Source: Rhodothermales bacterium | GTDB lineage: Bacteria; Bacteroidota; Rhodothermia; Rhodothermales; VXPQ01 | Direction: 5' to 3' | DNA: 64,000 nucleotides | Assembly: GCA_040904565.1 (NCBI GenBank) | Contig: JBBDTI010000054.1 | Span: 22,144 to 86,143 of the forward strand | Part shown: in pieces, positions 27,587 to 58,097 of the stretch | How positions within the stretch are numbered: the stretch's first letter is position 1 | Layout: each line of letters opens with the position of its first letter | Made by a program: the position numbers and the translations under genes | The notes under the pieces: generated by a model | What the model was told of the DNA's origin: nothing | Seen by the model: the letters and a program-made list of their open reading frames with translations, nothing else | The model's database searches: none

Positions 27587-30115
27587 ATGAGAAGGTTGTG
27601 GAGGGCGCTGCCCTTTGTCCTCATCCTCTTCGTTTTGGCACCGCCCCTCGTCCGCGCACAGTCCGATCAGGTCCCGTCTCGCGAGAGCCGGTCGTCGGTC
27701 ATGACGGCGGGAGTACTGGAGGGAGACGTACAGATCGACGGACGGCTCGACGAACCGAGCTGGTCGGCTGCGGAGCGCATGGACGAATTCGTTCAGTTTG
27801 AGCCGAGGGAAGGAGACCCGCCCACGCAGCCCTCGGAGGTGCGCGTGCTGTACGGTCCGAGCAGTCTCGTCGTCGGGGCGACGCTGTTCGATGAAGATTC
27901 CGAACGCATTCAGCGTACGCTGGGGCGGCGCGACGAGTATATGCAGGCCGACTGGTTCGCGGTGTCTATCGACGCCCATCTGGATCGCCGTACGGCATTC
28001 CTTTTTGCCGTCAATGCCGCCGGCGTCGAGTATGACGCGCAGCAAACGGAGGGAGCCCGTCCGGCTCCCGGACCGGGAGACGGCGGCGATACGTCGTGGG
28101 ATGCCATCTGGGATTCTGCGGTTCGCGTAACGGCCGATGGATGGGTCGTCGAGATGGAGATCCCGTACAGCATGCTCCGCTTCTCGAGGTCGGACGTGCA
28201 GACCTGGGGCATCCGTTTCTCACGCGAGATCCCGCGCCTCGGCGAGGTCTCCGAGTGGCCCCTCGTGCCGCGTACGGAACGGGCCAACCTGATCGCCCAA
28301 TACGGTACGCTGCAGGGCATCCGCGGCATCGAGCCGCGGCGCAACGTGCAGATTACGCCGTACACGCTTTCGCGGCTCGACCGGGTGGAGGATCCGACGG
28401 AGTCGGGCACGGCGCTGCACGAGACGGGGGTGGACGTGGGAGGGGACCTGCGCGTGGGGCTCGGGTCGAACGTGACGCTGAACGCGACGGTAAATCCGGA
28501 CTTCGGCCAGGTGGAGTCCGACCCCGCCGAGCTAAATCTCACGGCGTTCGAAACGTTTTTCGAGGAGCGACGGCCTTTTTTCGTCGAAGGGTCCCAGATC
28601 TATCAGTTTCCCCTCGTAAGTCGCGGCAATTTGCTATACACGCGGCGCATCGGGGCACAGAATCCGATTCTCGGCGCCGCCAAGGTTTCCGGCCGCACGG
28701 GCGACGGACTTTCGTTCGGCGTACTGGGCGCGGCGACAGGTCACGAACTGATCGGCGAATCGAACCGTCACTACGGCGCGGCGAGGCTCAGCCAGCAAAT
28801 CGGACGCTATTCTACCGCAGGGGGAATGGTTACCGGCTTCAACGGACTTGACGGGCGGGTGGTCGCGGGCGGGGCGGACTGGGATCTGCGCTTCGCGGAT
28901 AACACCTATGGGCTGCGGGGTTTCACGGCCTTTACGAGGGGAACGGATCTTGAAACGGGCTTCACGGGACAGGTCGCCGCCGGGCGGCGCCAGGGTACGT
29001 GGACGTACGAGTTCGGCGCCGATTTTATCGACGACCGGTTCGAGCCTAACGACCTCGGCAGGCAGCGCTACAATAACACCTGGGGCGTGGTCGGACGGTT
29101 CGGGCACGACCTGAATGCCGGGCGCGACTTCGGTCCGTTTCAGCGGGCCGAGGCACGTGCGTACACGTTCAACCAGTGGTCCTACGACGAGGGCGTCAAC
29201 CTGGGCGGCCGGTTCGCCGTCAATTCGGAGTGGACGCTGCGCAGCTTCGAGACCGTCTCGGTGGATGCCTCCCTCGACAATCATTTCGGCGGATACGACC
29301 AATTCGAAACGCGCGGCCTGGGATACAACGCGATCCCGATGGCCTTCGAACTCGGGGGAGCGTTTGCGACGGACTCGCGCCGCGAGTGGCGGCTCGAACC
29401 CGAGGCCGGCGTACAGTTCGAGGACGACGGCGGCATGACGTATGCCGGCGGCGTAGATGCCGAGTGGAACGTGCGGTCGCGGCTTGGGCTCGGCGCCGAG
29501 GTTAACGTCGAGTGGGGCGACGGGACGCGAGAGTGGGCCGCCAACGAGGAATTCCGGCGCCAGGATGGCGGCTGGGCCATCCGCGAGTCGGGTGGCGTCG
29601 ATCCGAGGTTCGTTCCGTTCGACGACGGCGGCCGGCTCGATGAGATTCTTGCAGGCGTGCTGACGACGGACGGCACCGACCGGTACCGCGTCCCTGTCTT
29701 CGGCGCTCGCGACACCCGTACGTTCGACCTCACGCTCCGCACGAACTACACGTTCACGCCGGACCTGGCCCTCCAGTTCTACAGCCAGTTTTTCGTCGCG
29801 CGGGCGCGGTATGACGATTTCCGTATTCTTACCGACCCGGATACCTATGCTCGGTTCGACGCCTTCCCCAAACGTTACGAGCTCGCGCGAAGCAGCTTTC
29901 AGTTCAATGCCGTGCTCCGATGGGAGTACCGGCCGGGATCGGAGCTGTTCGCCGTGTGGACGCAGAGCCGCCGTGCCGACGACGCCCTGAACCCGCTCGG
30001 CCCGTGGGATGCTTCGCCTTACGATCGCCCCTATTCCGAGCAGATCTCCGATACGTTCGGCATCTTTCCGGGTAACGTGTTCATGCTCAAGATCAATTAC
30101 GCGTTCCTGTATTGA
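27587..30115 (+). CDS. CBM9-like + DUF5916 domain protein (predicted outer-membrane beta-barrel), copy 2
   Basis: ATG at 27587 with a signal peptide. IDGRLDEPSWSAAERMDEFVQFEPREGDPPTQPSEVRVLYGPSSLVVGATLFD parallels copy 1. C-terminus ...LKINYAFLY. Confidence 0.75.
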   Translation: MRRLWRALPFVLILFVLAPPLVRAQSDQVPSRESRSSVMTAGVLEGDVQIDGRLDEPSWSAAERMDEFVQFEPREGDPPTQPSEVRVLYGPSSLVVGATLFDEDSERIQRTLGRRDEYMQADWFAVSIDAHLDRRTAFLFAVNAAGVEYDAQQTEGARPAPGPGDGGDTSWDAIWDSAVRVTADGWVVEMEIPYSMLRFSRSDVQTWGIRFSREIPRLGEVSEWPLVPRTERANLIAQYGTLQGIRGIEPRRNVQITPYTLSRLDRVEDPTESGTALHETGVDVGGDLRVGLGSNVTLNATVNPDFGQVESDPAELNLTAFETFFEERRPFFVEGSQIYQFPLVSRGNLLYTRRIGAQNPILGAAKVSGRTGDGLSFGVLGAATGHELIGESNRHYGAARLSQQIGRYSTAGGMVTGFNGLDGRVVAGGADWDLRFADNTYGLRGFTAFTRGTDLETGFTGQVAAGRRQGTWTYEFGADFIDDRFEPNDLGRQRYNNTWGVVGRFGHDLNAGRDFGPFQRAEARAYTFNQWSYDEGVNLGGRFAVNSEWTLRSFETVSVDASLDNHFGGYDQFETRGLGYNAIPMAFELGGAFATDSRREWRLEPEAGVQFEDDGGMTYAGGVDAEWNVRSRLGLGAEVNVEWGDGTREWAANEEFRRQDGGWAIRESGGVDPRFVPFDDGGRLDEILAGVLTTDGTDRYRVPVFGARDTRTFDLTLRTNYTFTPDLALQFYSQFFVARARYDDFRILTDPDTYARFDAFPKRYELARSSFQFNAVLRWEYRPGSELFAVWTQSRRADDALNPLGPWDASPYDRPYSEQISDTFGIFPGNVFMLKINYAFLY

Positions 30116-33370: not shown

Positions 33371-33985
33371 TCAAATGGGTATCCCTTCGCCCAGAAGCGG
33401 TTGGCCTCGTCGTACGCCATCGTGCCGCGATGTGCCGTCGAGCGTGATGAGATAGCCGCAGTCCAGGAGATTCGCTTCGATGTAAACGGCAGACAGTTGA
33501 TCGCCGTGGATGGCGCGTATCGCGTCGACCTGAACCCGACGCACGCTGAACGACGTACGCGGCTCGGCGATCACGAGGCGTTCCGTCGGGATGCCGAGCT
33601 CTTCGGCGATGTCAACCGTGCTGGCCGGGATGACGAAGATGCAGTCGGAATGCTCGAGCAGAATGCGCACCGTCCGCCTCCCGAAATGGTCGCCGTGTCC
33701 GTGTGTGATAAAGGCGACGTCCAGCTCGGGCGCCAGCTCCATCGCTGAAATCGGTGAAGGCTCCAGCCTACCCGGATATTCGAGAACGAGGTCGGTGCCT
33801 ACGAGCAGATCTCCCGACTTGATCAACCAGCCGTTGTGTCCGGTCCACCACACGGCGGCATCACCCTCGTGGGTGCGGATCTCGTCAATGAGGCGCGGCG
33901 CATCCTGGGCGCGGAGCGATGCCGGAATCAGGAGCGCGACGGCCAGCAGTCCGACCGTTGCGAGCCGCCGCGTCATTCGCTCCAC
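33371..33985 (-). CDS. MBL-fold metallo-hydrolase, secreted
   Basis: HxHxDH motif FITHGHGDHFG. Signal-like MTRRLATVGLLAVALLIPASLRAQ. GTG at 33985 or ATG at 33976; overlaps the upstream gene end. Confidence 0.8.
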   Translation of the reverse strand: MERMTRRLATVGLLAVALLIPASLRAQDAPRLIDEIRTHEGDAAVWWTGHNGWLIKSGDLLVGTDLVLEYPGRLEPSPISAMELAPELDVAFITHGHGDHFGRRTVRILLEHSDCIFVIPASTVDIAEELGIPTERLVIAEPRTSFSVRRVQVDAIRAIHGDQLSAVYIEANLLDCGYLITLDGTSRHDGVRRGQPLLGEGIPI

Positions 33986-34965
33986 GATTTCACCCCCAGC
34001 AGGCGCTCGCCCAGCTCGTTCAGCTGCGCGCGGTCGTACCGGTTTTTCTCAAGATTGCGGGGGTCGCCCGGGAAGGCGACGCCCTTCGGATGCTCGCGAT
34101 CGCGCCACAACCGGATGCGCTTCTGCCGCTGCTCTTCGTTGCCCTCGTCGGCCGGATACATGGACACGTACTGGGCGATGCGAGCGCGATCCTGGGAGCG
34201 ATTCGGTTTTACGCCGTGCGCAAGTAAGGAATTCCAGATGATGAGGTCACCCGCCTCGAGCGGGATGAACTCTACGTCGAAATCGGATACGTCCGGATAG
34301 TAGGGATCGCGATCTTCCGGCTGCTGCGCCAGCCAGTCGTCGAACGTTCGAAAGAGCTCCGGCACGCACTGGAATCCGCCGACCTCGGGATCCGTATCCA
34401 CCAGAGAAAGGACCCCCTGCACGTTGATCGGCAGCGGGTCTTTAGACGTATCCACGTCCCAGTGAATAAAGCCCTCAAACTGGCGCTCGCCGCGATTGGG
34501 CGTGTTGAGATTGGCCCGGTCGATGGTTACCCACAGGTCCTCGCGGTCCCAGATGTCGACGTAGGCGTCGTAGATACGCTTCGTCTGCCGGGTATCCCAC
34601 AGCAGCTGGTGGTTGTAGACCTCCACCATGCCGGCGTTATTTAGTTCTTCCATGCCGTGACGGCGCCGGTCTCCGATCCACGTCGACGGATCGTCCGGGT
34701 CCATCTCCTGGAACTCCCACAGGAAAGCGATGAGCCGGTCCCTGTGATCTTTCGGAATGGCATCTGGCACGACGACGTATCCCAACGTCTGCCAGTGCTC
34801 CCAATCGGCCTCGGAGAGCACGCGCAGCGGAAGCGACTTGTCGATCTCCCGAAGCGGCACGTCGAGCGTCAGTGATGCATTGCCTTCGTGACTTGGACCC
34901 TTCTCCACTTCCGCCATGGCTCGTTCCGAATGATTGTCCGACAGGTACTCATCAAACCTTTTCAC
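33973..34965 (-). CDS. Phytanoyl-CoA dioxygenase (PhyH) family Fe(II)/2-oxoglutarate dioxygenase
   Basis: HxD in FIHWDVD and distal His in SLLAHGVKPN. GTG at 34965 (an ATG lies 16 codons downstream). Confidence 0.7.
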   Translation of the reverse strand: MKRFDEYLSDNHSERAMAEVEKGPSHEGNASLTLDVPLREIDKSLPLRVLSEADWEHWQTLGYVVVPDAIPKDHRDRLIAFLWEFQEMDPDDPSTWIGDRRRHGMEELNNAGMVEVYNHQLLWDTRQTKRIYDAYVDIWDREDLWVTIDRANLNTPNRGERQFEGFIHWDVDTSKDPLPINVQGVLSLVDTDPEVGGFQCVPELFRTFDDWLAQQPEDRDPYYPDVSDFDVEFIPLEAGDLIIWNSLLAHGVKPNRSQDRARIAQYVSMYPADEGNEEQRQKRIRLWRDREHPKGVAFPGDPRNLEKNRYDRAQLNELGERLLGVKSWSE

Positions 34966-35073: not shown

Positions 35074-35919
35074 ATGTTCTTAAAGCGCAGGAACCTCAAT
35101 CGGCGTGTTTTTTTAGGCGGCGTGTTAGGTTGCGTAACCGCCTGGCTCTTTTTCGCAGGCGACGTCCGCGCGCAGGCTGACGGCGCATTCGAATGGCCGG
35201 CGGACAACGTGATGGCTCTCAGCCTGAGTTTTGACGATGCGCGTACGAGCCAGGTGGATGTCGGGCTCGATCTGTTCGATCGGACGGGTGGTCTGGTCAC
35301 TTTCTTCGTGGTTCCGGGGGCCGTCGAGCAGCGCCTGGACGGCTGGCGGCGCATGCGAGCGGCGGGCCACGAGATCGGGAATCACACGCTCACTCATCCG
35401 TGTACGGGCAATTTTTCGTGGGCGCGCGACAAGGCGCTGGAATCGTACACGCGCCAGGCGATGCGTCATGAGCTCACGGCCGCTAACCGCCGTATAGAAG
35501 AATTGCTGGGCGTGACGCCGGCGGTGTTTGCCTATCCGTGCGGCCAAACGTTCGTCGGGCGCGGGGTCGAAACGCTGAGTTACGTGCCGCTCGTCGCAGA
35601 GCTATTCCTGGCCGGACGTGGGTGGTTGGACGAAGCGCCGAACGATCCTACCTTCGTCGATCTCGCCCAGGTGCTCGCCATCGAGATGGACGGGAAGACC
35701 TTCGAGGAGCTGCTGCCCGTTCTCGAACAGGCTGCGGCCGACGGGAAATGGGTGGTCCTGGCGGGCCATGAGATTGGAGACGGCGGAGCACAGACCACAC
35801 GTGTTGACACGCTCGAACGGCTCATCCGCTATGTGAATGAGCCGTCCAATCACGTCTGGCTGGCCCCCGTCGGTACCGTGAGCCGGTATGTCGTCGAACA
35901 GCGAAGCTCCGGCCGCTAG
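35074..35919 (+). CDS. Polysaccharide deacetylase (CE4/NodB homology) family protein, secreted
   Basis: ATG at 35074. NodB motifs LSFDDARTS and GNHTLTHP. N-terminal hydrophobic signal. Confidence 0.8.
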   Translation: MFLKRRNLNRRVFLGGVLGCVTAWLFFAGDVRAQADGAFEWPADNVMALSLSFDDARTSQVDVGLDLFDRTGGLVTFFVVPGAVEQRLDGWRRMRAAGHEIGNHTLTHPCTGNFSWARDKALESYTRQAMRHELTAANRRIEELLGVTPAVFAYPCGQTFVGRGVETLSYVPLVAELFLAGRGWLDEAPNDPTFVDLAQVLAIEMDGKTFEELLPVLEQAAADGKWVVLAGHEIGDGGAQTTRVDTLERLIRYVNEPSNHVWLAPVGTVSRYVVEQRSSGR

Positions 35920-35925
35920 GATGCG

Positions 35926-38499
35926 CTACTCACCGCCCTCTTCACCTTCTTCCGCCTCGACGGCCTGATTGATGCCCTCGAGAATGACGGCCTGCTTTTC
36001 GGCGTTCTCCACGCTGCCGAGGTAGGTGGACAGCGTGGCGAGCGCGTCTTCCGTTCCGATCGCAGCGATGCGGCTGACGGTGAAGGAGAGGATGCGTGGG
36101 AGCTGGGCGGCGAGAGCCACGTCCATCGCCCTGTTCAGGTCGGTCGGGACGACCGGTTCCATGGCATACCAGGTCATGAGGGGAAGATTGCGATCGCCCG
36201 CATCTTCCGCCCGCCGGGTAAGCCCCTCGAGCACGTCCCATCTATTTTCCGGTTCCGTTCGCTGCAGTGCGCTGGCGAGGTAGAGACGCACGAGCGACGA
36301 GGGATCGTCCACCGCCATCTGCTCGAAGCGGGCCAGGGCGGACTGCGGCACGTCCCGGTCTTCGGCGAGCAGCTGAATGGCCCAGCTGCGGAGATGCTCG
36401 CTCTCGTGATCGAGCAGTTCGACGAGATCCTGATCCTCGAGTCCGTCCGTCACGTGCAGCGTCCAGAGCGCGCGCAGCTTGCGCGTGACGTCCGGGTTGT
36501 CGTTCAGCATGGCCCACAGCGCATCGTGCACCCCGGCGTCCGCTCCGCGCTCCTGCAGGAGGAGCCGCGAGCGCCGTACGTACCATTCGTTCTGATGCAG
36601 CTGCAGCTCGGCGAGCTCCGCCGACGAGCGTTCCGCCAGATTCACGTCCACCCATTCGTCATTTTCATGCGTGATTTTAAAGATCCTCCCCGTCGAGTGG
36701 TCGTGGCTCTCCGGGTTGCCGTGGTGGCACTGGTTGACGTCGTACCAGTCGATCGTGTAGACCGAGCCATCCGGACCGTACTGCAGGTCGAGCATCTGCG
36801 AGTAGCTGTCGTTGGCCAGCAGGAAGTCGGGGCCGTGGCGGCCGACGTATCCCGATCCGTCGCGCTCCAGGATGTCCGTGTTGGCCCGGAAGCCGTGCAC
36901 GTTGTTCATGAAAAGCCGGCCGTGAAATTCGTCGGGCCAGGAGTCACCGAAATAGAACATCGCTCCGGCATGGGCGTGTCCGCCGCCGGCCGCGCCGGAG
37001 CGGCGATTGCCCGCGTGCGGTCCGCGGTTTCCCACCCAGTGGACGTGGTCGCCGGTGTGATCGAGGTCGTCGTATACGTAGGGATTAAAGTGTTCCCCGG
37101 CCTGACGCATGATACGCGCTCCCTGGATCGCATGATGTAGATGAGGGATGACGCAGGCGGTCATGAAGCCGTGCCCGTATTCGTTCCAGTCGATGCCCCA
37201 GGGGTTGCTCGTACCGTAGGTGAACACCTCGAACTCGTGGCTGGTGGGGTGGAAGCGCCAGGTTCCGGCATTGAGCTTTACGCGCTCCTCTTCCGGCGTG
37301 CCCGGGGCGCCCACATTGGAATGGGTAAAGACGCCGTGCGTGCCGTAGAGCCATCCGTCCGGTCCCCATGAGAAGGAATTCAACGTTTCGTGCGTGTCGT
37401 GATACCCCCATCCGTCGAGGAGGATTTCCGGCTCACCCGCCGGCCGGTCGCCCGATGCGTCGATCGGAATGTACATGAGGTAGGGGGCGGCACCGACCCA
37501 GACGCCTCCCAGGCCAACCTCGAGGCCGCTTATGAGGTTAAGCCCTTCCGTGAACACCTTTCGGCTGTCCAGCGAACCGTCGCCGTCGGTATCTTCGAAG
37601 ATGAGGATGCGGTCGCGGCCTTCGCCTTCTTCCGCGCGCACGGGGTAGGTATGGGCTTCGGCGATCCAGACGCGGCCTCGCTCATCCAGCGCCATCGCGA
37701 TGGGATTGATCACGTCCGGCTCGGCGGCCGCGAGCTGGGCGCTAAATCCGTCGGGAAGATCCATGGCCGCGGCGGCCTGTTCGCCGGTTAGTCCGGCGTG
37801 GACGACCTCATCCCACGCCGGGAGTGCAGAGACCTCCGAAGACTGAATTTCGTTCGGGAAGGACGGCCGTTCCGCGTGGAAGCGGAAGTGATCGAAGCTG
37901 ATGTGGGCGAATGGGTTTTCTCGGATGTACATGGCCGTGGAAGCACCCGCATCCGCGTCGACGAGGCGGATGAAGATCCGGTCGCCGACGTGATCGCTCA
38001 GATCGGCCACGACGGGGCGAAGTTCAAACGAGTTCGTGCCGCTCATCGAAAAAACGACTTCAGCGCCGTCCGTCAGAACGAGTTCCGCCCGGGTACTTTC
38101 GAATGCCCCGCCGGCGAGCAGGAAGCTCGCATACGGTTCCGTGACCTCGAACGCTACCGACGTAAGCTCGCCCTGTCCGCTCGGGCCGTGCGCGAGGACG
38201 GAACTCACCCAGTAGTCGCCCTCGTGACCGCTCCGTGCGTCCTCTTCGCGCTCCGCGACGATCTCGGCCTCACGCGAGGCGTACACGTCGCCCTGAACGG
38301 GCTGGCCTTCGAAGGCATCGCCGTCGGCCGTCCAGTCGGCCAGCGTGCCGGCCTCGAAATCGAGGTTGAGTGTGCGTCCGGCGTCATCCGTAGGGGCTAC
38401 ACCTGCATCCTGGGCCGCGGCGGGGGCGGCCGCGAGCAGGATGCAGGTCAGAACGAAAAGAAATACCTGCGGGAGAGACGTGTGCGTTGACATGATCAT
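35926..38499 (-). CDS. Large periplasmic 'membrane-bound dehydrogenase domain' (SGL-like beta-propeller) + HEAT-repeat protein, paralog B (no redox cofactor module seen)
   Basis: ATG at 38499 with a signal peptide. N-terminal LNLDFEAGTLADWTADGDAFEGQPV domain. Core RILIFEDTDGDGSLDSRKVF...GWGYHDTHETLNSF. C-terminal helical HEAT-like repeats. No CxxCH motif. Confidence 0.8.
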   Translation of the reverse strand: MIMSTHTSLPQVFLFVLTCILLAAAPAAAQDAGVAPTDDAGRTLNLDFEAGTLADWTADGDAFEGQPVQGDVYASREAEIVAEREEDARSGHEGDYWVSSVLAHGPSGQGELTSVAFEVTEPYASFLLAGGAFESTRAELVLTDGAEVVFSMSGTNSFELRPVVADLSDHVGDRIFIRLVDADAGASTAMYIRENPFAHISFDHFRFHAERPSFPNEIQSSEVSALPAWDEVVHAGLTGEQAAAAMDLPDGFSAQLAAAEPDVINPIAMALDERGRVWIAEAHTYPVRAEEGEGRDRILIFEDTDGDGSLDSRKVFTEGLNLISGLEVGLGGVWVGAAPYLMYIPIDASGDRPAGEPEILLDGWGYHDTHETLNSFSWGPDGWLYGTHGVFTHSNVGAPGTPEEERVKLNAGTWRFHPTSHEFEVFTYGTSNPWGIDWNEYGHGFMTACVIPHLHHAIQGARIMRQAGEHFNPYVYDDLDHTGDHVHWVGNRGPHAGNRRSGAAGGGHAHAGAMFYFGDSWPDEFHGRLFMNNVHGFRANTDILERDGSGYVGRHGPDFLLANDSYSQMLDLQYGPDGSVYTIDWYDVNQCHHGNPESHDHSTGRIFKITHENDEWVDVNLAERSSAELAELQLHQNEWYVRRSRLLLQERGADAGVHDALWAMLNDNPDVTRKLRALWTLHVTDGLEDQDLVELLDHESEHLRSWAIQLLAEDRDVPQSALARFEQMAVDDPSSLVRLYLASALQRTEPENRWDVLEGLTRRAEDAGDRNLPLMTWYAMEPVVPTDLNRAMDVALAAQLPRILSFTVSRIAAIGTEDALATLSTYLGSVENAEKQAVILEGINQAVEAEEGEEGGE

Positions 38500-38505
38500 T
38501 GCGAT

Positions 38506-39753
38506 TTAGTTTGCGTCTGAGAGCAATTGGGGTTGGGCATCCTCCCATTCCGAAGCGCTTACCATGCGCGTCTGGTGGTGGAAAACGAACGCCCCCTTCT
38601 TATTGACGACCAGGATGTCGGGCAGCCCGTCGTCATTGAAATGGCCGATCGTTACGTCGACGCCGACGCCGGAGTCGTCGTCGATCAGGTAGGGGATGAA
38701 GGACACGTCGCCGTCTTCAGAGCGGTCCAGCTTGAACCAGTAGAGGACGGCCGGCGCCTGTGATTCGGGGTCGCCGTGATCGCCGTGCGCGTACCAGCGC
38801 TTTCCGGTCACGATATCCAGGAGTCCGTCTCCGTCGATGTCGGCGACTTTCAGGGCGTGCGGCTGCGTGAATCGCACGCCATATGGACTGTCCTCGATCT
38901 CTTCACCCATGATGAGGTGTCGTTCGAACGTACCGTCCGGCAGCTGTTCGAACCAGGCCAGGCCGTATCCATGGGCCTCCAGGCTCGTGATGACGTCGTT
39001 CCGTCCATCTCCGTTCACGTCGTAGGCGTGCATGTGGGCACCGCCGGGTCCGAAGTCGACCTCGTGGTAGGTCCATAGGTCGTCCGAATCGAAGCCGGGA
39101 TTCTCCCACCAGCCTTCGGCCAGGATCAGATCCGGCAGTCCGTCCCCGTCGACGTCGCCCGTGCCGAGGCCGTGCGTATAGCGGCCCCACTCGTGCTGCT
39201 CCGTCACGGGATGGAACGTCCATTCGTCGGTTGGACGATCGGGGTCGAAGGTCGTGTACCCCATGTATCCGTCGGCCAGGTGGACGATCTCGGGCCGCCC
39301 GTCACCCGTGAAATCCTCGATATGCACCGATTCGTCATCGATCGTAGGATAGGCCAGATGCCGCTCCCAGTGCCCGCCGTCATCCTGCGGATTCTCGTAC
39401 CAGTACGCTGCCTCTCCGGGAAATCCGATCACGAGGATGTCGTTACGTCCGTCGCCGTTGAAATCGTAGACGTGCGCGAAAAACTTGTCGGAGTACTCCA
39501 GCACATCGAAGACGGTCGGTTCGATGAATTCGTGCCGCTCCTGGAAGTCGGGCCCCGCGTACCAGAACGGGCCGACCACCACATCCGGCGTGCCGTCGCC
39601 GTCGACGTCGCCGATGGCCCCGCCTTCCGCATAGAAGACGTCGGAGAGCTGGGTGCGCTCGAATTCGTGCACGGTCCGGTCTTCCGGACCGAACAGCAGA
39701 TACCCCGAGGCGACGAGGATGATGGCTGCGGCGGCTACGTAGATCTTTTTCAT
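38506..39753 (-). CDS. FG-GAP/VCBS repeat protein, secreted
   Basis: ATG at 39753. Repeated Ca-binding-like DxDGDG motifs: GDVDGDGTPDVVVG, FNGDGRNDILV, TGDGRPEIV, GDVDGDGLPDLIL, VNGDGRNDVI, DIDGDGLLDIV. Confidence 0.85.
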   Translation of the reverse strand: MKKIYVAAAAIILVASGYLLFGPEDRTVHEFERTQLSDVFYAEGGAIGDVDGDGTPDVVVGPFWYAGPDFQERHEFIEPTVFDVLEYSDKFFAHVYDFNGDGRNDILVIGFPGEAAYWYENPQDDGGHWERHLAYPTIDDESVHIEDFTGDGRPEIVHLADGYMGYTTFDPDRPTDEWTFHPVTEQHEWGRYTHGLGTGDVDGDGLPDLILAEGWWENPGFDSDDLWTYHEVDFGPGGAHMHAYDVNGDGRNDVITSLEAHGYGLAWFEQLPDGTFERHLIMGEEIEDSPYGVRFTQPHALKVADIDGDGLLDIVTGKRWYAHGDHGDPESQAPAVLYWFKLDRSEDGDVSFIPYLIDDDSGVGVDVTIGHFNDDGLPDILVVNKKGAFVFHHQTRMVSASEWEDAQPQLLSDAN

Positions 39754-39757
39754 GGCT

Positions 39758-42598
39758 TCAGTCTCGGTTGACGAGCTCGTTGATTCCGTTCAATATGGCA
39801 CGCCGCTGCTCCTGCGTATCGGCCTGCGACAGACGGCCCGACAGGGTCTGCAGGGCCTGCTGCGATCCGATTGCCGCGATGCGGCGGATCGTAAATTCAA
39901 GAATGTTCGGCAGCTCCGAGGCGAGGGCCACGTCGAGCGCCCGGCCCATATCGAGGGGCACGGTGGGCTCCGTGGCATACCAGACCATCAGAGGTTGGTT
40001 GTGGTCATCGGCGTCCTCGGAACGGAGGTGCAGTTCTTCAAGAACGGTCCACCGGCGATCCGGTTCGATGCGCTGCAGTGCGGCGGCGACGTGGAGCCGT
40101 ACCATGGCCGACTCGTCGTGGGCGGCCAGGCGAGTGAGAGCAGACATCGCGGCGTCCGAAATCTCACGGTCTTCAGCCAGCAGCTGAACGGCCCAGCTCC
40201 GGACGTATTCGTTTTCATGTGAGAGATACTCCACCAGCGCCGCGTCGGTGAGTCCGCCCGTGACGTGGAGAGCCCAGAGCCCGCGCAGCTGGTGTGCGGG
40301 CTCTGCTTCGTTGTCGATCAGGTCGTTCAGGGCGTCGTGGACGATTTCGTCGGCTCCCCGCTCTTGAAGAATACGCTGCGCGTGTCGGACGTACCACTCG
40401 TTATCGTGCGTCAGCAGGTCCACGAGCTCGGCGGAGGTCCGCTCCTGCACATTCACCCGCACGAACCGGTCGTTTTCGTGGCTGATCTTGAAGATGCGGC
40501 CCAGCGACTTTTCGTGGACGTCGGGATTCGGGCTGTGGCACTGGTTCTTGTCGTACCAGTCTATCGCGTGGACCGACCCGCCGGGTCCGTAGCGCAGGTT
40601 CAGCATCTGCGACCAGGCATCGTTAGCCATTAGAAAATCGTCTCCGTGGGTTGCGCGGTAGCCTGATCCGTCTCTCTCGAGAACGTCCGCGTTCACGCGG
40701 TACCCGTGGATGTTATTCATCAGGATCCGCGACCGGTACGTATCCGGCCAGCTTCCGCCCTGGTAGATCATGGCCCCTGCGTGCGCGTGCCCACCGCCTC
40801 CGCCGCGTCGGCTTCCGGCGGCCCAGCCCTTATCACCCACCCAGTGCACGTGGTCGGCGATCGTCTCGATGTCGTCGTACGTATATGGATTAAAGTGTTC
40901 GCCGGCCTGTCTGAAATAGCGGGCGCCCTGAACGACGTGGTATAGATGGGGGATGACGCAGGCCGTGATAAACGGCTGTCCGTACTCGTTCCAATCGAGG
41001 CCCCACGGGTTGCTCGTTCCGTGCGCGTAGACCTCGAATTCGTGACGCGTGGGATGATAGCGCCAGACCCCGGCGTTGAGGGGTGTGCGAAGCGAGTCGG
41101 GCGTTCCCGGTTCACCTACGTTCGAGTGCGTGAAGACGCCTTGCGTGCCGTAGAGCCATCCATCCGGACTCCAGCGAAACGAATTAAGGGTCTCGTGCGT
41201 GTCGTGATATCCCCATCCATCAAGCAGGATCTCCGGCTCGCCGGCGGGCCGATCGCCGGAGGCATCGATCGGGATATACATCAAGTAGGGTGCTGCGCCG
41301 ACCCACACGCCGTCGAACCCCACTTCGATGCCGCTGACGAGGTTGAGTCCCTCGACGAACACCTTCCGGCTATTTAGTGTGCCGTCGCCGTTCGTATCCT
41401 CGAAGATGAGGATGCGATCCTGCCCTTCACCGTCCGGCGCCCTGCGGGGATACGTACGTCCTTCCGCGACCCAGAGGCGGCCGCGGTCGTCGTACGTGAA
41501 GGCGATCGGGCGAACGACGTCGGGTTCTGAAGCGGCGACCTGTACGGAAAACCCCTCCGGAAGGTCCATGGCCTCGACGGCCTCCTCGGCGGAGAGTCCG
41601 GCGTGCTCGGGAAGCTGCAGGGCGGGAAGCGGCTCGGTCTCCTCGCGGGTCAGCTCGTTGGGAAAAGATGGCCTCGTTTCGTAGAAGCGGAACCGGTCGA
41701 AGCGGATATGAGCCCACTGGTGCGGATCGTGGAAGGGGTTGGACCGTTCCCCGGTCTCTTCGTCGACGATCTCGATGAAGATATCTTCTCCCATGTATTC
41801 GCTTACATCGACGACGACGGGGCGCAGGGACGCGCCGTCATGGCCCGATATGGAATAGAAGATCGTACCGTCGTCGGCGCGGCGAAGCTCTACGTGCGTG
41901 CCTTCGAACGCGCCTCCGGCGATGAGAAAGGCCGCGTACGGATGCGTGACTTCGAAGGGGGCGGACTGAAGGCGTCCGGTAGGCGCGCTCCCGGCCAGGG
42001 CGCCCGTATCGATCCAGTAGTCGCCGTCGTAATTGGAGGCCGGTTCGTGTTCATCGCTCGCCTCGATATCGACGGACGACACGGGCTGATCGTCGAAGGC
42101 CGTTCCGACCGCCGTCCAGTCCGCCAGCGTCCCGTCCTCAAAGTCGACGTTGATCGGAGGGGCCTGGCCCGGATCCTGCGCCACGTCGCCCGAGACGATC
42201 TCGAAGCGTCCTTCCATTCCGGCGGCCCGGTGGCCGGGAATCGTGCAGAAGTAAATGTCGTCGGCGACGGCCGTGAACGTGACGCTGGCGCGTTCGCCGA
42301 CCTCGAGGACCTCGTCCGTCTTGACCCCCAGTTCTTCCATCTTCAGGTCGTGAACCAGCGTCTCGCCGTTCACGATCGTGATCCGGACGACCTCGCCTTC
42401 TTCAGCGGTAAGGACCGGATTGCGTACGCCGTCGATCTCACCACCGATGCCCGTGTAGCCGAGCATGGTGGATTCCAGTACGTATTCCCGGTCGATCTCG
42501 GATGCGTCGTCGAGATCCTGCGCGCTCACGATGGAGGTCGTCGGCAGCCACGAGAGCAGCACGGAAAGGAGAAGGCGCTGAAGACAACGAGCGTACAT
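39758..42598 (-). CDS. Cupredoxin + 'membrane-bound dehydrogenase domain' + HEAT-repeat protein, paralog A
   Basis: ATG at 42598 gives the signal MYARCLQRLLLSVLLSWLPTTSIVSAQ. The core is collinear with 35926..38499, including an identical 44-aa stretch VWVGAAPYLMYIPIDASGDRPAGEPEILLDGWGYHDTHETLNSF encoded with synonymous differences. Extra N-terminal cupredoxin. The ORF upstream to 42856 is unsupported. Confidence 0.8.
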   Translation of the reverse strand: MYARCLQRLLLSVLLSWLPTTSIVSAQDLDDASEIDREYVLESTMLGYTGIGGEIDGVRNPVLTAEEGEVVRITIVNGETLVHDLKMEELGVKTDEVLEVGERASVTFTAVADDIYFCTIPGHRAAGMEGRFEIVSGDVAQDPGQAPPINVDFEDGTLADWTAVGTAFDDQPVSSVDIEASDEHEPASNYDGDYWIDTGALAGSAPTGRLQSAPFEVTHPYAAFLIAGGAFEGTHVELRRADDGTIFYSISGHDGASLRPVVVDVSEYMGEDIFIEIVDEETGERSNPFHDPHQWAHIRFDRFRFYETRPSFPNELTREETEPLPALQLPEHAGLSAEEAVEAMDLPEGFSVQVAASEPDVVRPIAFTYDDRGRLWVAEGRTYPRRAPDGEGQDRILIFEDTNGDGTLNSRKVFVEGLNLVSGIEVGFDGVWVGAAPYLMYIPIDASGDRPAGEPEILLDGWGYHDTHETLNSFRWSPDGWLYGTQGVFTHSNVGEPGTPDSLRTPLNAGVWRYHPTRHEFEVYAHGTSNPWGLDWNEYGQPFITACVIPHLYHVVQGARYFRQAGEHFNPYTYDDIETIADHVHWVGDKGWAAGSRRGGGGGHAHAGAMIYQGGSWPDTYRSRILMNNIHGYRVNADVLERDGSGYRATHGDDFLMANDAWSQMLNLRYGPGGSVHAIDWYDKNQCHSPNPDVHEKSLGRIFKISHENDRFVRVNVQERTSAELVDLLTHDNEWYVRHAQRILQERGADEIVHDALNDLIDNEAEPAHQLRGLWALHVTGGLTDAALVEYLSHENEYVRSWAVQLLAEDREISDAAMSALTRLAAHDESAMVRLHVAAALQRIEPDRRWTVLEELHLRSEDADDHNQPLMVWYATEPTVPLDMGRALDVALASELPNILEFTIRRIAAIGSQQALQTLSGRLSQADTQEQRRAILNGINELVNRD
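42191..42493 (-). other. Type-1 (blue) copper cupredoxin domain within 39758..42598
   Basis: Candidate ligand set His (LVHDL), then Cys-x4-His-x4-Met in YFCTIPGHRAAGM. The Cys codon at 42245-42247 was verified in the sequence. Confidence 0.65.
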
Positions 42599-42977
42599 CG
42601 GCGGGCAGTAGAGAAGGATATATAACTTGGAAAGCGAACAGGACCTGGAAGCCGGGTGGACGAGGAACACCGTCCCGCATCTAGGCCGCAGCAGCCGACC
42701 CACAATATACACGCGATGTGTCGACTTATGAAGGGTGGAGTCAAATGGAGCGCTCGTGCTCGAGCCAGGGCCTGTCTCGGCGCGGATGCGGAGCGGCTCT
42801 TGCCGTCCGGCTGGTGCCGCGCCGCATCCGTACCAACCGTTCTGCTGGTGCCGCATCGCATTGGCACGAACCGTTTGGTTATCTTATCGCGGCCGGCACG
42901 TCCAAAGAAAAGGCTGTGGACAGGGGCGGGGTAGTTCCGGCAAATGAAAGATTGCCCGAACAACTAGTCCGAGGTGC

Positions 42978-44527: not shown

Positions 44528-46063
44528 CTATGCGGCCCGGTCCCTCCGGGCCGAATAAACCGCCCACACCCACAATGCGATGCAAAGCACGCCCAGCGCG
44601 GCCGCGACGGGGCGTCCGAAGAAGGCGAGCGGGTCGCCGCCGGCGGAGGTCAGGATCTGAATGAACCGTTCTTCGAGCGGCGCGCCGAGAATGATGCCCA
44701 GGACGACGGGTCCGAGCGGAACGTCCATCCGCTCGAGCCCGAATCCGAGGAGCCCCATGCCCAGCATGACGGCGACGTCGAAATTGCTGCTGTTGATGGC
44801 GTAAGCTCCGACGATGCAGAGCAGGAGGATGATCGGCATGAGGAGTTTCTGCGGTACGCGCACGACGCGCGATCCCATCTTCACGGCGAGGAGTCCGACC
44901 GGCAGGAGCACCAGGTTCGCGACGATAAAGATCAGGTAGATGCTGTAGACGAGTCCGGCCTGCTCGAGGAAGATGTCCGGGCCCGGATTGACGTTCTTCA
45001 TCAGAAGGACGCCGATCACGATGGCCGTGATCGAGTCGCCCGGAATGCCGAAAACGAGCGCGGGTATCCAGGTACCGGCCAGGGCGGAGGAATTTGCCGC
45101 CGTGGCATCCGAGATACCGTCGATGGAACCCTTACCGTAGGCCTCCGGCGTGTCGCTGGCTCGCTTGGATGCGGCGAGGGAGACCCACGACGCGATGTCG
45201 GCCCCGGCACCGGGCAGCATGCCCACGAACGAGCCGATGACGCCGGATCGGAAGGTATGGCGAAGCCGTCTGCGAACGACCGAGAAGCCCGGCTTGATGA
45301 CGTCCACGATAGGGCCGATCAGATAGCGTCGTACGTGGGAGCGTCCCCGCCGTGCCGTCGACGGCGGCGTCATGCCGCCCAGGCCGGTGCCCCCGACGAG
45401 ATTGTTGAGCACCTCGGAGAGTCCGAACAGTCCGATCATGGCGGGAATGAAATTGATGCCCTGATACAGCTCGGGCCGGCCGAACGTGAACCGGGCCTCC
45501 GTGTGTACGGCGCTGAGGCCGACGGTCGACAACAAGAGACCGATCAGCATGGCCAGCGAAGCCTTGCTGAGCGCGCCTCGGGAGACGACCACGGCGGAGC
45601 TCAGACCGAGCACGTAGAGCCAGAAATATTCGGCGATGCTGAAAAAGGTCGCGACGCGGGCGAGTTGATGACCGAGCGTCATGAGCACGACGGCTCCGAA
45701 GAGTCCGCCTGCGACACTCGAAACGAGCATCGTCCCGAGCGCGAGGTCCGACCGCCCTTCCCTGGTAAGCGCGTAGGCGTCGTCGACGTACGCCGCCGAC
45801 GCCGGTGTACCGGGAATGCGCAGCAGCGTCGTGGGGAGGTCGCCGGCGAAGATGGCGCAGGCGACCATGGTAACGATGCCCGCGAGGGCGGGAATCGGAT
45901 CCAGCCAGTACGTCAGCGGGATGAACAGCGCGACCGACATCGTGGCCGTCAGTCCGGGCATGGAACCCATGAAGACGCCGTAGAGCGCCGAGAAGAAGAC
46001 GATCGCCAGGACCTCCGGACTGAGAACGACCTGCTGCAGGGCCTGAAGGAGGGCTTCACTCAT
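44528..46063 (-). CDS. tctA: Tripartite tricarboxylate transporter large permease
   Basis: ATG at 46063. About 511 aa polytopic membrane protein with a TctA-like FMGSMPGLTATMSVALFIPLTYWL. Confidence 0.85.
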   Translation of the reverse strand: MSEALLQALQQVVLSPEVLAIVFFSALYGVFMGSMPGLTATMSVALFIPLTYWLDPIPALAGIVTMVACAIFAGDLPTTLLRIPGTPASAAYVDDAYALTREGRSDLALGTMLVSSVAGGLFGAVVLMTLGHQLARVATFFSIAEYFWLYVLGLSSAVVVSRGALSKASLAMLIGLLLSTVGLSAVHTEARFTFGRPELYQGINFIPAMIGLFGLSEVLNNLVGGTGLGGMTPPSTARRGRSHVRRYLIGPIVDVIKPGFSVVRRRLRHTFRSGVIGSFVGMLPGAGADIASWVSLAASKRASDTPEAYGKGSIDGISDATAANSSALAGTWIPALVFGIPGDSITAIVIGVLLMKNVNPGPDIFLEQAGLVYSIYLIFIVANLVLLPVGLLAVKMGSRVVRVPQKLLMPIILLLCIVGAYAINSSNFDVAVMLGMGLLGFGLERMDVPLGPVVLGIILGAPLEERFIQILTSAGGDPLAFFGRPVAAALGVLCIALWVWAVYSARRDRAA

Positions 46064-46069
46064 GCTCGT

Positions 46070-47404
46070 TCACCATCCTAAAACCCCCCACGGAAGCGGC
46101 ACGCGCAGCAGTACGGCGAAGAGGTGGTACGTAACGACGGCCGACGCGACGGACGCCGCGAGGGCCACGGGAAGACGGACCCGCAGCAGGAGGAAGAAGC
46201 CGAGCAGGATACACGCAGCCGTGACGACGTACCCCAGCGATTCCACGACGAGCACGTACAGGAGGACGGCACCTATCGCTCCGGCGGCGAAGAGGATCCC
46301 ACGCCGGGTTACGTCATCCCGTTCTCGATCCTCCGACGTGTCGCGCCGGACGTGGGCCAGCACGGAGAGCACGAGCGAGACGCTCATCAGCACGCCGATC
46401 GCGGCGGGGAACAGCCAGGGCCCGTAGGTCTGCCGTCGCACGGACTCGAAGGCGGCGCTCTGAAAAATCTCCCCGAAGGCCCGGTTTTCTTCTTCCAGCG
46501 CCTCCGCGAACGCTTCGGGTCCGTCGGCCGCCGCACCGAAGCCCGCCCGCTCGGAGAACGCGAGATATTCGTCGCTCGTCACGACGTTGCGGACGGCCGA
46601 TTCGAGTACCTCGACGCGGTCTTCCGGCACGCCGAGAGGAAGGGCGAGCCCGCGCCACGTAAAGCTCGTCCAGTCGACGCCCGTCTCCTCCAGCGTCGGC
46701 ACGTCCGGTACGGATGGCAGCCGCTCTTCGGCCATGACGGTAAGGCAGCGAATTTCTCCGGCGTCGACGAGACTTTGCGCCTCCGGCACGCTGCAGCTGA
46801 CGACGTCGACGCCGCCCGCCATCATTTCCTGCAGCGATGGGGCGGATCCGTTCAGGGAGAGCCAGACGATGTCGCCAGCGCTCAGGTCGTTGCGAATCAG
46901 CCAGCCGGCGAGTGCCACGTGCCAGATCCCGCCGAAGGCCGTTCCGGATGCGCGCAACTCGCCCGGCCGATCGCGCACCTCCGCCTCCAGCTCGTCGATG
47001 GTTTCCCACGGCGAATCGGCCCGAACGAACAGGGCGGCATAGTCGCGATTGACCCGCATCAACGGCCGGAAGTCGCGGTGGGTAATGTTCGTGAGGCCGC
47101 GCCAGTGGAGCATGTTCAGCTCGGCCGTGATCATCGTCATCGTATATCCGTTCGGCTCGGCGAGCGCGCCGCGGGTATGGCCTGTAACGCCGGCGCCACC
47201 GCTGGCGTTGACCACGTTGACGGGCACGCCGAGCTCCTGCTCGAGCTGGGCGGCGATCTGCCGGGCGACCCGGTCGGTACCGCCGCCGACCGACCACGGC
47301 ACGATCATCGTGATAGGTCGGTTCGGAAAGGCGTCATCCGTCTGACATCCACCCGAGAAAAACCCCAGGAGGAGGACGAGCAGCAATGTGGAGAGCGAGC
47401 GCAT
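46070..47404 (-). CDS. TctC-type (Bug family) substrate-binding lipoprotein fused in frame to a TctB-like small membrane subunit
   Basis: ATG at 47404 (MRSLSTLLLVLLLGFFSGGCQ, lipobox). TctC core PNRPITMIVPWSVGGGTDRVARQIA. The C-terminal ~130 aa has four hydrophobic helices with a charged loop HVRRDTSEDRERDDVTRRG. No stop or in-frame start lies between the two parts. Confidence 0.75.
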   Translation of the reverse strand: MRSLSTLLLVLLLGFFSGGCQTDDAFPNRPITMIVPWSVGGGTDRVARQIAAQLEQELGVPVNVVNASGGAGVTGHTRGALAEPNGYTMTMITAELNMLHWRGLTNITHRDFRPLMRVNRDYAALFVRADSPWETIDELEAEVRDRPGELRASGTAFGGIWHVALAGWLIRNDLSAGDIVWLSLNGSAPSLQEMMAGGVDVVSCSVPEAQSLVDAGEIRCLTVMAEERLPSVPDVPTLEETGVDWTSFTWRGLALPLGVPEDRVEVLESAVRNVVTSDEYLAFSERAGFGAAADGPEAFAEALEEENRAFGEIFQSAAFESVRRQTYGPWLFPAAIGVLMSVSLVLSVLAHVRRDTSEDRERDDVTRRGILFAAGAIGAVLLYVLVVESLGYVVTAACILLGFFLLLRVRLPVALAASVASAVVTYHLFAVLLRVPLPWGVLGW

Positions 47405-47417
47405 GCGTGCGGGCAAT

Positions 47418-48695
47418 CTACCAGTTCTGGATGGAACCGTCGGGGCGCCGAAACTGGGGGATCGGATCGTCGTGGTCGGTGATTTCCGCAACGAGCTCGG
47501 CCTCTGCCGGGTCGAACGTGACGCCGAGTCCGGGCCGGTCGTTCGGGCGGATCTTGCCGTCGATAAACTCGAACGTTTCCGGCAGATGAGCCTCCGGGGA
47601 GGGACCGCTTCCCCGCATCTCGATGACGACGGGGTTGGGGGAGGAGCCGCAAGCGTGCACGAGCGCGGCCGTGGAGATTGTCCCGGTGAAATGCGGCACC
47701 AGGCCCACGTAATGGGTTTCACACAGTGCGGCGAGCTTCTTGAATTCCGTGATGCCGCCGGCATTTGGGAGCGTCACGCGTGAATAGTCGATCAGCCGGT
47801 CTTCGACGAGCTCGTTGACGGTCCACCGATCGCCGTAGTGCTCGCCGACGGCGATCGGAACGTTGACCTTCTGGCGGACGGTCTGGTATACCTCCTTGTT
47901 CTCCGAGCGAACCAGGTCTTCGACGAAAAACGGTTCGTAGGCTTCGATGAGGGCGCTCAGCCGTACGGCCTGGGTGAGATCGAGTCGCGTGTGGAAGTCG
48001 ATGCACCAGTGGCCCGCCGATCCGACCCCGCGGTGGACGGCTTCGCAGCGGGCGCGGTTGTGTTCGAAGATGTCGTTCGGATCGAACGTGTCGTCGCCGC
48101 GCGGATTGTCGGCCGAAATCCGATAGGCGTAAAAGCCGGCCTCTACGCAGGCACGGGCGGTAGACTCGAGGTCGCCCTGCCACGGGTAGCCGGTGGAGTA
48201 GCACTCGATATGGTCTCGCGTCAGCCCGCCCAGCATCTCGTATACGGGAACGTCGAGCGCGCGGCCCTTGATATCCCACAGCGCCATGTCGAGCGCACCG
48301 AGGCCGTGCAGCTTCTCGAGGCCTGGGGGATAAAACCAGCCGCGGTACATGAGCTGCCACAGATGTTCGATCTGGAATGGATCTTGGCCGACGATCTGGG
48401 CAGCCATCTGCTCGATCATGTCGGGCGTGCCGCCTTCGCCCACCCCCGTGATGCCGCCGTCCGTTTCGACGGTGACGACCCGGTTGCTCTGATTGAAGGT
48501 GCGATTGAGGTTGGATGGCTCGTAGACGCGAATCCGCGTGATGCGCAGGTCGGAGCGTCCGGGGATGGCACCGAGGCTTGCGGTGTGAGCGCCCGGCTTC
48601 GCATCAGCAGTTGCAGCGGCACGTTCCGGCAGGCCCGAAACAAGTCCGACACACGCCCCCAGCGCGGCCGTACCCAGGAAAGCTCGTCGATTCAT
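47418..48695 (-). CDS. Enolase-superfamily dehydratase (mandelate racemase/ManD-RspA-like subgroup) with twin-arginine signal
   Basis: ATG at 48695. MNRRAFLGTAALGACVGLVSGLPERAAATA. Metal-ligand context WCIDFH, FFVED, AVGEH. Catalytic His in LVPHF. Confidence 0.8.
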   Translation of the reverse strand: MNRRAFLGTAALGACVGLVSGLPERAAATADAKPGAHTASLGAIPGRSDLRITRIRVYEPSNLNRTFNQSNRVVTVETDGGITGVGEGGTPDMIEQMAAQIVGQDPFQIEHLWQLMYRGWFYPPGLEKLHGLGALDMALWDIKGRALDVPVYEMLGGLTRDHIECYSTGYPWQGDLESTARACVEAGFYAYRISADNPRGDDTFDPNDIFEHNRARCEAVHRGVGSAGHWCIDFHTRLDLTQAVRLSALIEAYEPFFVEDLVRSENKEVYQTVRQKVNVPIAVGEHYGDRWTVNELVEDRLIDYSRVTLPNAGGITEFKKLAALCETHYVGLVPHFTGTISTAALVHACGSSPNPVVIEMRGSGPSPEAHLPETFEFIDGKIRPNDRPGLGVTFDPAEAELVAEITDHDDPIPQFRRPDGSIQNW

Positions 48696-49200
48696 GTCCG
48701 CGTCCCCTATGTTGGCATCACGTTCGAGATGGATTCAGAAGATATTGAGGTCCGGTCCCCCTATCAACTCACGTGGCAATTGCCGTGTGGATGCAGGCGG
48801 CCCCGGCGGAACCCGCCACCAGGTGGCGACGGGAACGATCCACGTCTAGAGGGAATTGAGCCCGCGTCGAGCCGGGAACGAGCTCGCGTCGGACCGAAAA
48901 TCAACGTTCGACGAAGACGAAATCGGCCGGTGTCAAGAATGGACTGCGAAGTCTCCATGAACGTGTTATATTGGCACGCGTGGTAGCGTCCGCCTCACCC
49001 GACTTTGGGACGCCGCCGATGCCCCGGATCTCCCAGCGAGGGTGCTATAACGAGCGCTTTCTCGTGAGCCGGTGCGTTCCGGCATCAGGCCACCTCCGTG
49101 CGAACGCCGGTGGTCGATCCGGGCTGAAACCGTTTTTGCAAACGTCATTCTGGTACGTCATTTTCGGACAACCGTTACATAAGGAGGGTTGAGAGTATCT

Positions 49201-58088: not shown

Positions 58089-58097
58089 TATCCTAGT

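Follow-up and report, generated by a model that had tools for sequence, protein, structure and literature searches.

A candidate blue-copper, subunit-split variant of the DUF7133/TIGR02604 propeller proteins in a Rhodothermales bacterium

In bacteria of the Planctomycetes-Verrucomicrobia-Chlamydiae (PVC) group, DUF7133/TIGR02604 beta-propellers usually occur in single proteins that also carry HEAT repeats and end in a cytochrome c domain, and one planctomycete genome has been reported with 20 TIGR02604 copies (PMC7397252). Naumoff, Dedysh and colleagues regard TIGR02604 proteins as putative beta-propeller glycoside hydrolases (PMC7397252, PMC5352709). Lac161_ORF7 (AGW45552), a TIGR02604, HEAT and cytochrome c protein encoded on a Chthoniobacter-like cosmid, has been reported to be a novel beta-galactosidase, with a Km of 1.8 mM for lactose (PMC5342196). 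In periplasmic sugar oxidation, DUF1080 proteins hydrolyse 3-keto-disaccharides and work with cytochrome c-dependent periplasmic dehydrogenases (PMC8121099, PMC9007349). Here we describe a three-gene locus that encodes two DUF7133 paralogs and an FG-GAP protein, on contig JBBDTI010000054.1 of a Rhodothermales bacterium (assembly GCA_040904565.1; the 64,000-nucleotide stretch analysed, positions 22,144 to 86,143 of the forward strand, is called the window). The family itself is already known and uncharacterised; what is new here is a copper-linked, subunit-split variant with paired paralogs.

The window has a base composition of about 63% GC. Three minus-strand open reading frames (ORFs), which we call A, B and C, occupy 35926-42856 and are separated by 4 nt (A-B) and 6 nt (B-C). 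Their features are as follows.

39758..42598, minus strand: gene A, 946 aa, with signal peptide, cupredoxin, beta-sandwich, DUF7133 propeller and HEAT repeats (ORF and start codon, Pfam and NCBIfam matches, AlphaFold2)
42179..42493, minus strand: cupredoxin domain of A, type-1 (T1) copper, residues ~36-140 (Copper-bind match; ligands H83, C118, H123 and M128)
41609..42154, minus strand: all-beta domain of A, residues ~149-330, with the 'DFE.GTLADW' motif (AlphaFold2 model)
40475..41593, minus strand: DUF7133/TIGR02604 propeller of A, residues 336-708 (Pfam, TIGR02604, Foldseek)
39761..40456, minus strand: HEAT-repeat domain of A, residues ~715-946 (HEAT_2; helical repeats in the model)
38506..39753, minus strand: gene B, 415 aa, with an N-terminal hydrophobic helix and a seven-bladed FG-GAP propeller (Pfam, AlphaFold2)
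35926..38499, minus strand: gene C, 857 aa, with signal peptide, beta-sandwich, DUF7133 propeller and HEAT repeats, and no redox domain (Pfam, NCBIfam)
38370-37795, 37782-36664 and 36642-35929, minus strand: beta-sandwich, DUF7133 propeller and HEAT domain of C, respectively

The maximal ORF of A (39758..42856) would encode 1032 aa. The ATG at 42598, which gives a 946-aa protein with a signal-like N terminus, is favoured because homologs are about 946 aa long. A scan for promoters and terminators gave no signal above shuffled expectation.

We interpret A, B and C as a periplasmic redox enzyme system that would be a blue-copper, multi-subunit version of the PVC DUF7133/TIGR02604-HEAT-cytochrome c enzymes, and we put the chance that this is right somewhat short of even. 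The PVC proteins, Lac161_ORF7 included, share with A and C the same beta-sandwich/propeller/HEAT core, the conserved residues and the association with FG-GAP modules. They differ in that A has an N-terminal T1 cupredoxin instead of CxxCH and C has no redox domain, whereas the FG-GAP module is here a separate gene and two paralogs stand in one operon. A motif scan of all three proteins found neither CxxCH nor CxxC, and no cytochrome c or TIGR02603 profile matched any of them. Close homologs carry the NCBI name 'PVC-type heme-binding CxxCH protein', and the cupredoxin-type homologs have no cytochrome c Pfam domain; judged by motif and domain content, the name is misleading for A, C and the cupredoxin-type homologs. 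A preliminary description of this locus had given the gene order, strand, gaps and sizes, the cupredoxin, HEAT and FG-GAP content and the absence of CxxCH from both paralogs, and ORFs and profiles confirm all of these. Its statement that the architecture has no experimentally defined substrate is not quite right in view of the reported lactose hydrolysis by Lac161_ORF7 (PMC5342196).

The cupredoxin of A matches Pfam Copper-bind (PF00127) over residues 89-132 with 23.5 bits (cut-off 21.2), and the T1 copper ligands H83, C118, H123 and M128 are invariant in all 109 A-type homologs. Its closest solved relative is the tethered N-terminal cupredoxin of a Hyphomicrobium nitrite reductase, 6tfd/2dv6 (sequence E 2e-17, profile E 9e-24, Foldseek E 2e-9). 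In that three-domain enzyme of H. denitrificans, as in A, the electron carrier is part of the protein, a T1 copper domain tethered to a larger catalytic portion, but the core of the enzyme is a two-cupredoxin T1/T2 copper protein, whereas the partner in A is a beta-propeller and nothing connects the locus with nitrite. The AlphaFold2 model of A (pLDDT 88.4, pTM 0.82) consists of the cupredoxin, the all-beta domain, the propeller and a helical-repeat domain. The all-beta domain (~149-330) has no Pfam or PDB profile match even at E<=10 and is unmatched among the top 50 whole-model Foldseek matches of A; it is conserved in the cytochrome c-type PVC relatives. Against a cut-off of 27.7 bits, HEAT_2 scores 40.7 in A and only 20.5 in C, although C aligns with A over the whole HEAT domain.

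An alignment of A with C covers 804 aa at 61% identity. Their longest identical run, 45 aa, is encoded with 26 differences in 135 nt, and 251 of the 503 identical residues use different codons. Nonsynonymous and synonymous divergence (NG86) are dN 0.33 and dS 1.37, which indicates an old duplication under purifying selection, as had been proposed. Recent gene conversion between A and C was considered and rejected, given a dS of 1.37 and a nucleotide identity of 0.53-0.77 along the whole gene.

B is related to FG-GAP propellers, matching FG-GAP_3 with 108.5 bits and FG-GAP with 82.7 bits (PF13517, PF01839), and is 100% identical to an NCBI protein from a Rhodothermales metagenome-assembled genome. 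Its AlphaFold2 model (pLDDT 95.1) is an all-beta propeller with a helix at residues 3-20. Foldseek matched the model to CRTAC1, aldos-2-ulose dehydratase (4a7k/4a7y), ITFG2, integrin alpha-V and GlcNAc-binding PVL lectins. CRTAC1, aldos-2-ulose dehydratase, the integrin alpha head and the PVL lectins have the same fold as B (E 1e-10 to 1e-7, query-normalised template-modelling score (TMq) 0.45-0.59). B shares the Ca-loop-like DxDxDG motifs of FG-GAP propellers, with five strict D.[DN].[DN]G..[DE] loops, but is only 12-19% identical to them and has an invariant residue set of its own (E43, E141, H194, H261, H299, K318, R319 and several Trp). In most blades of B, the position that holds the Phe of 'FG' in integrin-type repeats, immediately ahead of the Ca-loop motif, is a His (THGLG, AHGYG, PHA, AHG), and H194, H261 and H299 are invariant in 119 homologs. 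These His residues could form a ring near the central axis of the propeller.

FG-GAP and DUF7133 proteins are linked well beyond this locus. We found more than 6,372 relatives of C at E<=1e-10 and more than 6,734 of B, and B-like genes are present in at least 596 species genomes. Of 80 species loci surveyed around B homologs, 67 were informative and 13 were uninformative because of short flanks. FG-GAP and DUF7133 lie in one ORF in 18 loci, a DUF7133 gene is directly adjacent to the B homolog in 19 and nearby at more than 1 kb in 2, and in 28, where each side has 3 kb of flank or more, there is no DUF7133 neighbour. Among the fused loci is that of the isolate Chthoniobacter flavus Ellin428, whose protein, encoded at L022:9791-14968, combines the Pfam domains FG-GAP, DUF7133, HEAT and Cytochrom_C. 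In the adjacent class, the DUF7133 partner is an upstream A-type gene in seven loci, and a trio, a convergent A and a contig-truncated upstream gene (only propeller and HEAT visible) account for one locus each; the partner lies downstream in nine, six without a redox domain and three of cytochrome c type. A reciprocal sample of 80 metagenomic DUF7133 loci contained a fused FG-GAP module in 25, mostly at the N terminus. So frequent a combination of fusion and adjacency makes the FG-GAP/DUF7133 link a classical Rosetta-stone association, far above chance, and on this comparison the FG-GAP protein is a genuine partner of DUF7133 enzymes, in line with the partnership suggested beforehand.

Several loci show other forms of the fusion. 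The FG-GAP module is C-terminal in two giant single polypeptides, L107 (1898-7144) and L114 (4915-11124), of which L107 has the order DUF7133, HEAT, cytochrome c, 3-keto-disaccharide hydrolase (DUF1080) and FG-GAP. In four marine metagenome loci (L108, L116 at 4711-10148, L118 and L119), a shorter DUF7133-HEAT protein is encoded directly after a fused FG-GAP-beta-sandwich-DUF7133-HEAT protein, and neither of these tandem paralogs has cytochrome c or a cupredoxin. Among relatives, the DUF7133-HEAT core is also fused to alternative domains, cytochrome c or ThuA.

The A-B-C trio is rare. We saw it only in the window and on one other Rhodothermales contig (L001, the same as L009), so the trio does not hold as a conserved unit; the conserved units are A followed by B and B followed by C. 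A-B pairs occur in Rhodothermales, Balneolaceae and Bacteroidota (L006-8, L011, L012, L017, L054, L091, L097 and L124), and stand-alone A genes in L003, L004, L093, L095, L096, L098 and L100. B lies directly upstream of C in all 12 C-type loci (the window, L001, L002, L005, L010, L087-L090 and L171-L173), and in nine of the ten that are informative the gene immediately before B bears a cupredoxin. The window and L001 have a full A in this place, and L002, L010, L088, L171, L172 and L173 have a gene for a short protein that we call mini-A; in L089 only the HEAT tail of an upstream A or mini-A is visible, at the contig edge. In L089 (3-1676) this HEAT tail and the FG-GAP protein share one uninterrupted frame, which points either to one more form of the fusion or to the loss of a stop codon.

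Mini-A (346-370 aa) is made up of a signal peptide, a cupredoxin whose copper ligands are intact, a Pro-rich linker and the last ~160 HEAT residues, which align to A residues ~785-944; the propeller is missing. The six genes (L002:7559-8665, L010:8677-9975, L088:5123-6172, L171:7001-8050, L172:7001-8059 and L173:7001-8104) are labelled hypothetical or unnamed in the source records, and are always followed by an FG-GAP gene, a C-type DUF7133 gene and PhyH. The mini-A stop codon overlaps the B start by 4 nt. Mini-A proteins are closest to trio-type A proteins, form at least 23 clusters at 90% identity and have pairwise dN/dS values of 0.37-0.43. A search with the cupredoxin alone in a 50% representative library gave 379 clusters at E<=1e-10, whose representatives were mostly fragments, and recovered one mini-A (P0244). 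We considered and rejected a decaying pseudogene as an explanation of mini-A, in view of the number of clusters, a dN/dS near 0.4, the intact copper ligands and the fixed position. The presence of mini-A before B and C, with its propeller gone, suggests that A lends its copper domain to C. These six loci favour the earlier proposal that the paralog with the cupredoxin serves the one without it, and the proposal is probably right.

The propellers of both paralogs belong to the same family: that of A scores 349.7 bits against TIGR02604 (cut-off 122.2) and 220 bits against DUF7133 (PF23500, cut-off 27), and that of C 359 and 221.2 bits. DUF7133 was the only Pfam match on the propeller at E<=10, with no SGL or GSDH (PF07995), so the propeller had been wrongly described as SGL-like. 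Foldseek against the PDB placed sGDH, the soluble glucose dehydrogenase that depends on pyrroloquinoline quinone (PQQ), first for the A propeller, weakly (1c9u_B, E 5e-7, target-normalised template-modelling score (TMt) 0.49, root-mean-square deviation 9.4), and also returned luciferin-regenerating enzyme (TMt 0.63). Like the related E. coli YliI, sGDH is periplasmic and passes electrons to a small redox protein, which is the logic proposed here, but neither has a sequence-level relation to the A propeller, and the likeness is best read as a generic fold resemblance. Searches of PDB sequences and profiles gave no match to the propeller, and when the propeller profile was aligned to YliI with hhalign, globally and locally, the probability was about 1%. 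A by-eye likeness between SNPWG and the RNPQG of PQQ dehydrogenases was not significant. Membership of the PQQ-dehydrogenase family was dropped, as neither Pfam, nor the PDB searches, nor hhalign gave anything significant.

Residues conserved across the family were sought in an alignment of 131 diverse DUF7133 propellers, the most distant of which share 25% identity with A. Twenty-six polar or aromatic positions are at least 95% conserved, including H468 (98%) and H688 (99%); C547 and C687 are about 95% conserved, and H515, H551, H583, H585, H604 and H606 89-93%. Both A and C retain all 26 positions, the two Cys and the six His, so that neither is a degenerate copy. The preliminary description had asked whether cofactor residues survive in the paralogs: the family-wide conserved polar residues do, in both, whereas PQQ binding is unsupported at the sequence level. 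The sole internal segments of low confidence in the A model, 582-604 (HVHWVG...GGGGHAHAG) and 684-688 (NQCHS), are His/Cys-rich conserved loops, and we know of no counterpart to them in sGDH. The position of this His/Cys constellation in low-confidence loops suggests that a His/Cys-bound metal or a protein-derived cofactor is more likely than a classical PQQ site.

The genes around the trio bear on its possible substrate. The main neighbours in the window are as follows.

33973..34965, minus strand: PhyH-family dioxygenase gene (Pfam)
35074-35919, plus strand: convergent deacetylase gene, between C and PhyH
49189-50310, plus strand: GFO_IDH_MocA gene (Pfam)
50428-51822, plus strand: major facilitator superfamily (MFS) transporter gene (Pfam)
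55323-56075, plus strand: 3-keto-disaccharide hydrolase gene, 3keto-disac_hyd (Pfam)
59579-63979, minus strand: gene for a CotH, lamin-tail-domain (LTD) and chitobiase-C protein of 1466 aa or longer (it reaches the window edge), with a Por secretion tail

PhyH directly follows C in L002, L010, L087, L088, L171, L172 and L173, and two small ORFs intervene in L005. On the opposite strand beside the mini-A, B, C and PhyH cluster stand GFO_IDH_MocA, MFS and 3-keto-disaccharide hydrolase genes (L002, L088 and L171-L173), and the giant CotH/LTD gene also flanks the mini-A clusters in L002, L171, L172 and L173. In the window MlrC, TctABC and an enolase-family gene displace the GFO_IDH_MocA, MFS and hydrolase set from the trio. 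Additional GFO/IDH/MocA genes are also found in the window, as are three xylose-isomerase-like TIM barrels (AP_endonuc_2), PIG-L and polysaccharide deacetylases and a BNR sialidase-like gene, and in L001 a ThuA-DUF7133-HEAT fusion adjoins a GFO gene. This neighbourhood points to 3-keto-sugar metabolism. With the periplasmic 3-ketoglycoside pathway (LacABC/ThuAB and DUF1080) it has GFO_IDH_MocA, AP_endonuc_2, 3keto-disac_hyd and MFS genes in common, a link by context; the fusions of ThuA to DUF7133 and of DUF7133 to cytochrome c, DUF1080 and FG-GAP also tie in the vocabulary of that pathway. To our knowledge, DUF7133 proteins have never been placed in it experimentally.

Some other features of these contigs were recorded. 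A 39-aa ORF lies just downstream of the C-type gene in L001 (12697-12816), L089 (4632-4751) and L090 (4175-4294), all three with a convergent polysaccharide deacetylase gene; the window has no room for it, because the C stop codon (35926-35928) is 6 nt from the end of the deacetylase gene at 35919. A single ORF at 46070-47764 (minus strand) joins TctC, the periplasmic receptor, to TctB, the small membrane subunit, of a tripartite tricarboxylate transporter, and adjoins TctA at 44528-46063; the same fusion is present in L005. Two large DUF5916 proteins are encoded less than 5 kb apart at 23284-25503 (minus strand) and 27587-30115 (plus strand), and one also adjoins YjgF in L005. The ORFs at 18669-20789 (plus strand, 706 aa) and 56954-58228 (minus strand, 424 aa) have a coding-like GC content at third codon positions and no Pfam match at E<=1e-4.

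In the redox system that we propose, B would be an integral subunit of each DUF7133 enzyme, tethered or exported through its N-terminal hydrophobic helix, and its role may be to bind substrate or to provide a second catalytic module. C, which has no electron-transfer domain of its own, would use the cupredoxin of A or mini-A in trans, and A or mini-A would dock through its C-terminal HEAT repeats. Through the copper domain, the active sites of the propellers would be linked to the respiratory chain or to some other redox partner in the periplasm. A carbohydrate or keto-sugar derivative is the probable substrate, because GFO/IDH/MocA proteins, TIM barrels, a 3-keto-disaccharide hydrolase, deacetylases and MFS transporters are encoded nearby.

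Several observations weigh against this proposal. A-type genes stand without a neighbouring B in five of nine informative metagenomic loci and in L003 and L004, and the 28 B homologs without a DUF7133 neighbour show that the pairing is not obligatory; flanking-ORF clustering of 24 such solitary B loci found no recurrent neighbour. The closest relative of the window, L005 (C 79% identical, otherwise syntenic), has TctA followed by B and C with no cupredoxin gene in 22 kb, the sole exception among the informative C-type loci, so that C either can do without a partner from its own locus or has one encoded at another site. No relation of the propeller to PQQ dehydrogenases is seen at the sequence level, and the sole published biochemistry of the family is lactose hydrolysis, not oxidation (PMC5342196). 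The absent or solitary partners would be expected if A, B and C were independent, co-transcribed periplasmic enzymes, with A self-sufficient, C using a soluble partner or none, B a distinct lectin or enzyme that acts at a different step in the same pathway, and no A-C complex. That A is found alone or with B only would fit, as would the resemblance of the B fold to stand-alone lectins and the aldos-2-ulose dehydratase propeller. Against such independence, single-polypeptide fusions of FG-GAP and DUF7133 are frequent, and a propeller-less mini-A that is under purifying selection and always precedes B and C is difficult to account for unless its cupredoxin works for a second protein; we consider it unlikely that the three proteins act separately.

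The remaining alternatives concern the chemistry of the propeller. The cupredoxin might be an electron inlet, with the His/Cys-rich centre of the propeller a reductive or oxygen-activating metal site fed by T1 copper (by cytochrome c in PVC bacteria), by analogy with copper nitrite reductase or nitrous-oxide reductase. The cupredoxin is indeed most closely related to tethered nitrite reductase domains in which copper feeds a catalytic core, some eight His and two Cys show 90-99% conservation over the 131 propellers, the segments that hold them are modelled as the low-confidence loops expected of a site that needs its ligand, and there is no PQQ-family signal. The top PDB fold of the propeller is, however, a substrate-oxidising dehydrogenase, and the gene context is that of sugar catabolism rather than nitrogen-oxide metabolism, which leaves electron flow in this direction with a low probability in our estimate. 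A different possibility is that DUF7133 propellers have no redox function and are beta-galactosidase-like glycoside hydrolases, A and C being isozymes of differing specificity. This is what the release of glucose from lactose by purified Lac161_ORF7, a distant member of the cytochrome c type, would indicate (PMC5342196), and it agrees with the listing of TIGR02604 as putative glycoside hydrolases (PMC7397252, PMC5352709), but it leaves the regular fusion to cytochrome c, cupredoxin or ThuA unexplained. The activity was measured on one His-tagged purified protein in a glucose-oxidase/peroxidase coupled colour assay, and the same study assigned beta-galactosidase activity to a 7TMR-GGDEF protein (PMC5342196). 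Moreover, the Lac161 cosmid complemented S. meliloti but not E. coli (PMC5342196), a pattern that, on our reading, is also compatible with oxidation in the periplasm by a cytochrome c-dependent pathway of the LacABC/DUF1080 kind (PMC9007349). We rate the hydrolysis report as weak evidence because of the coupled assay, the complementation of S. meliloti only and the unexplained redox-domain fusions, and regard a purely hydrolytic family as very improbable.

Taken as a whole, the preliminary description of A, B and C as an oxidation complex is partly supported. A broader form of the redox proposal would make DUF7133 propellers a new class of periplasmic redox catalyst with a His/Cys-based metal or protein-derived cofactor rather than PQQ. 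They would form obligate assemblies with FG-GAP proteins, and heteromers with a paralog or a cupredoxin-HEAT protein that gives the electron-transfer domain in trans, and would feed an oxidative (3-keto-type) breakdown of glycans widespread in PVC bacteria and in the Fibrobacteres-Chlorobi-Bacteroidetes (FCB) group. That all of these parts hold together is doubtful.

The locus itself is not exotic. The DUF7133/TIGR02604 family is very abundant, with more than 6,000 close relatives found, and its single published activity is doubtful. The Rhodothermales loci present a naturally dissected version of these enzymes, with a separate FG-GAP subunit, one paralog without a redox domain and a mini-A that isolates the electron-transfer module, and a copper domain in place of c-type haem should make expression easier. 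The comparative and fusion evidence thereby gives concrete, testable assignments of subunits and electron transfer for a large uncharacterised family, which probably belongs to the non-hydrolytic catabolism of carbohydrates.

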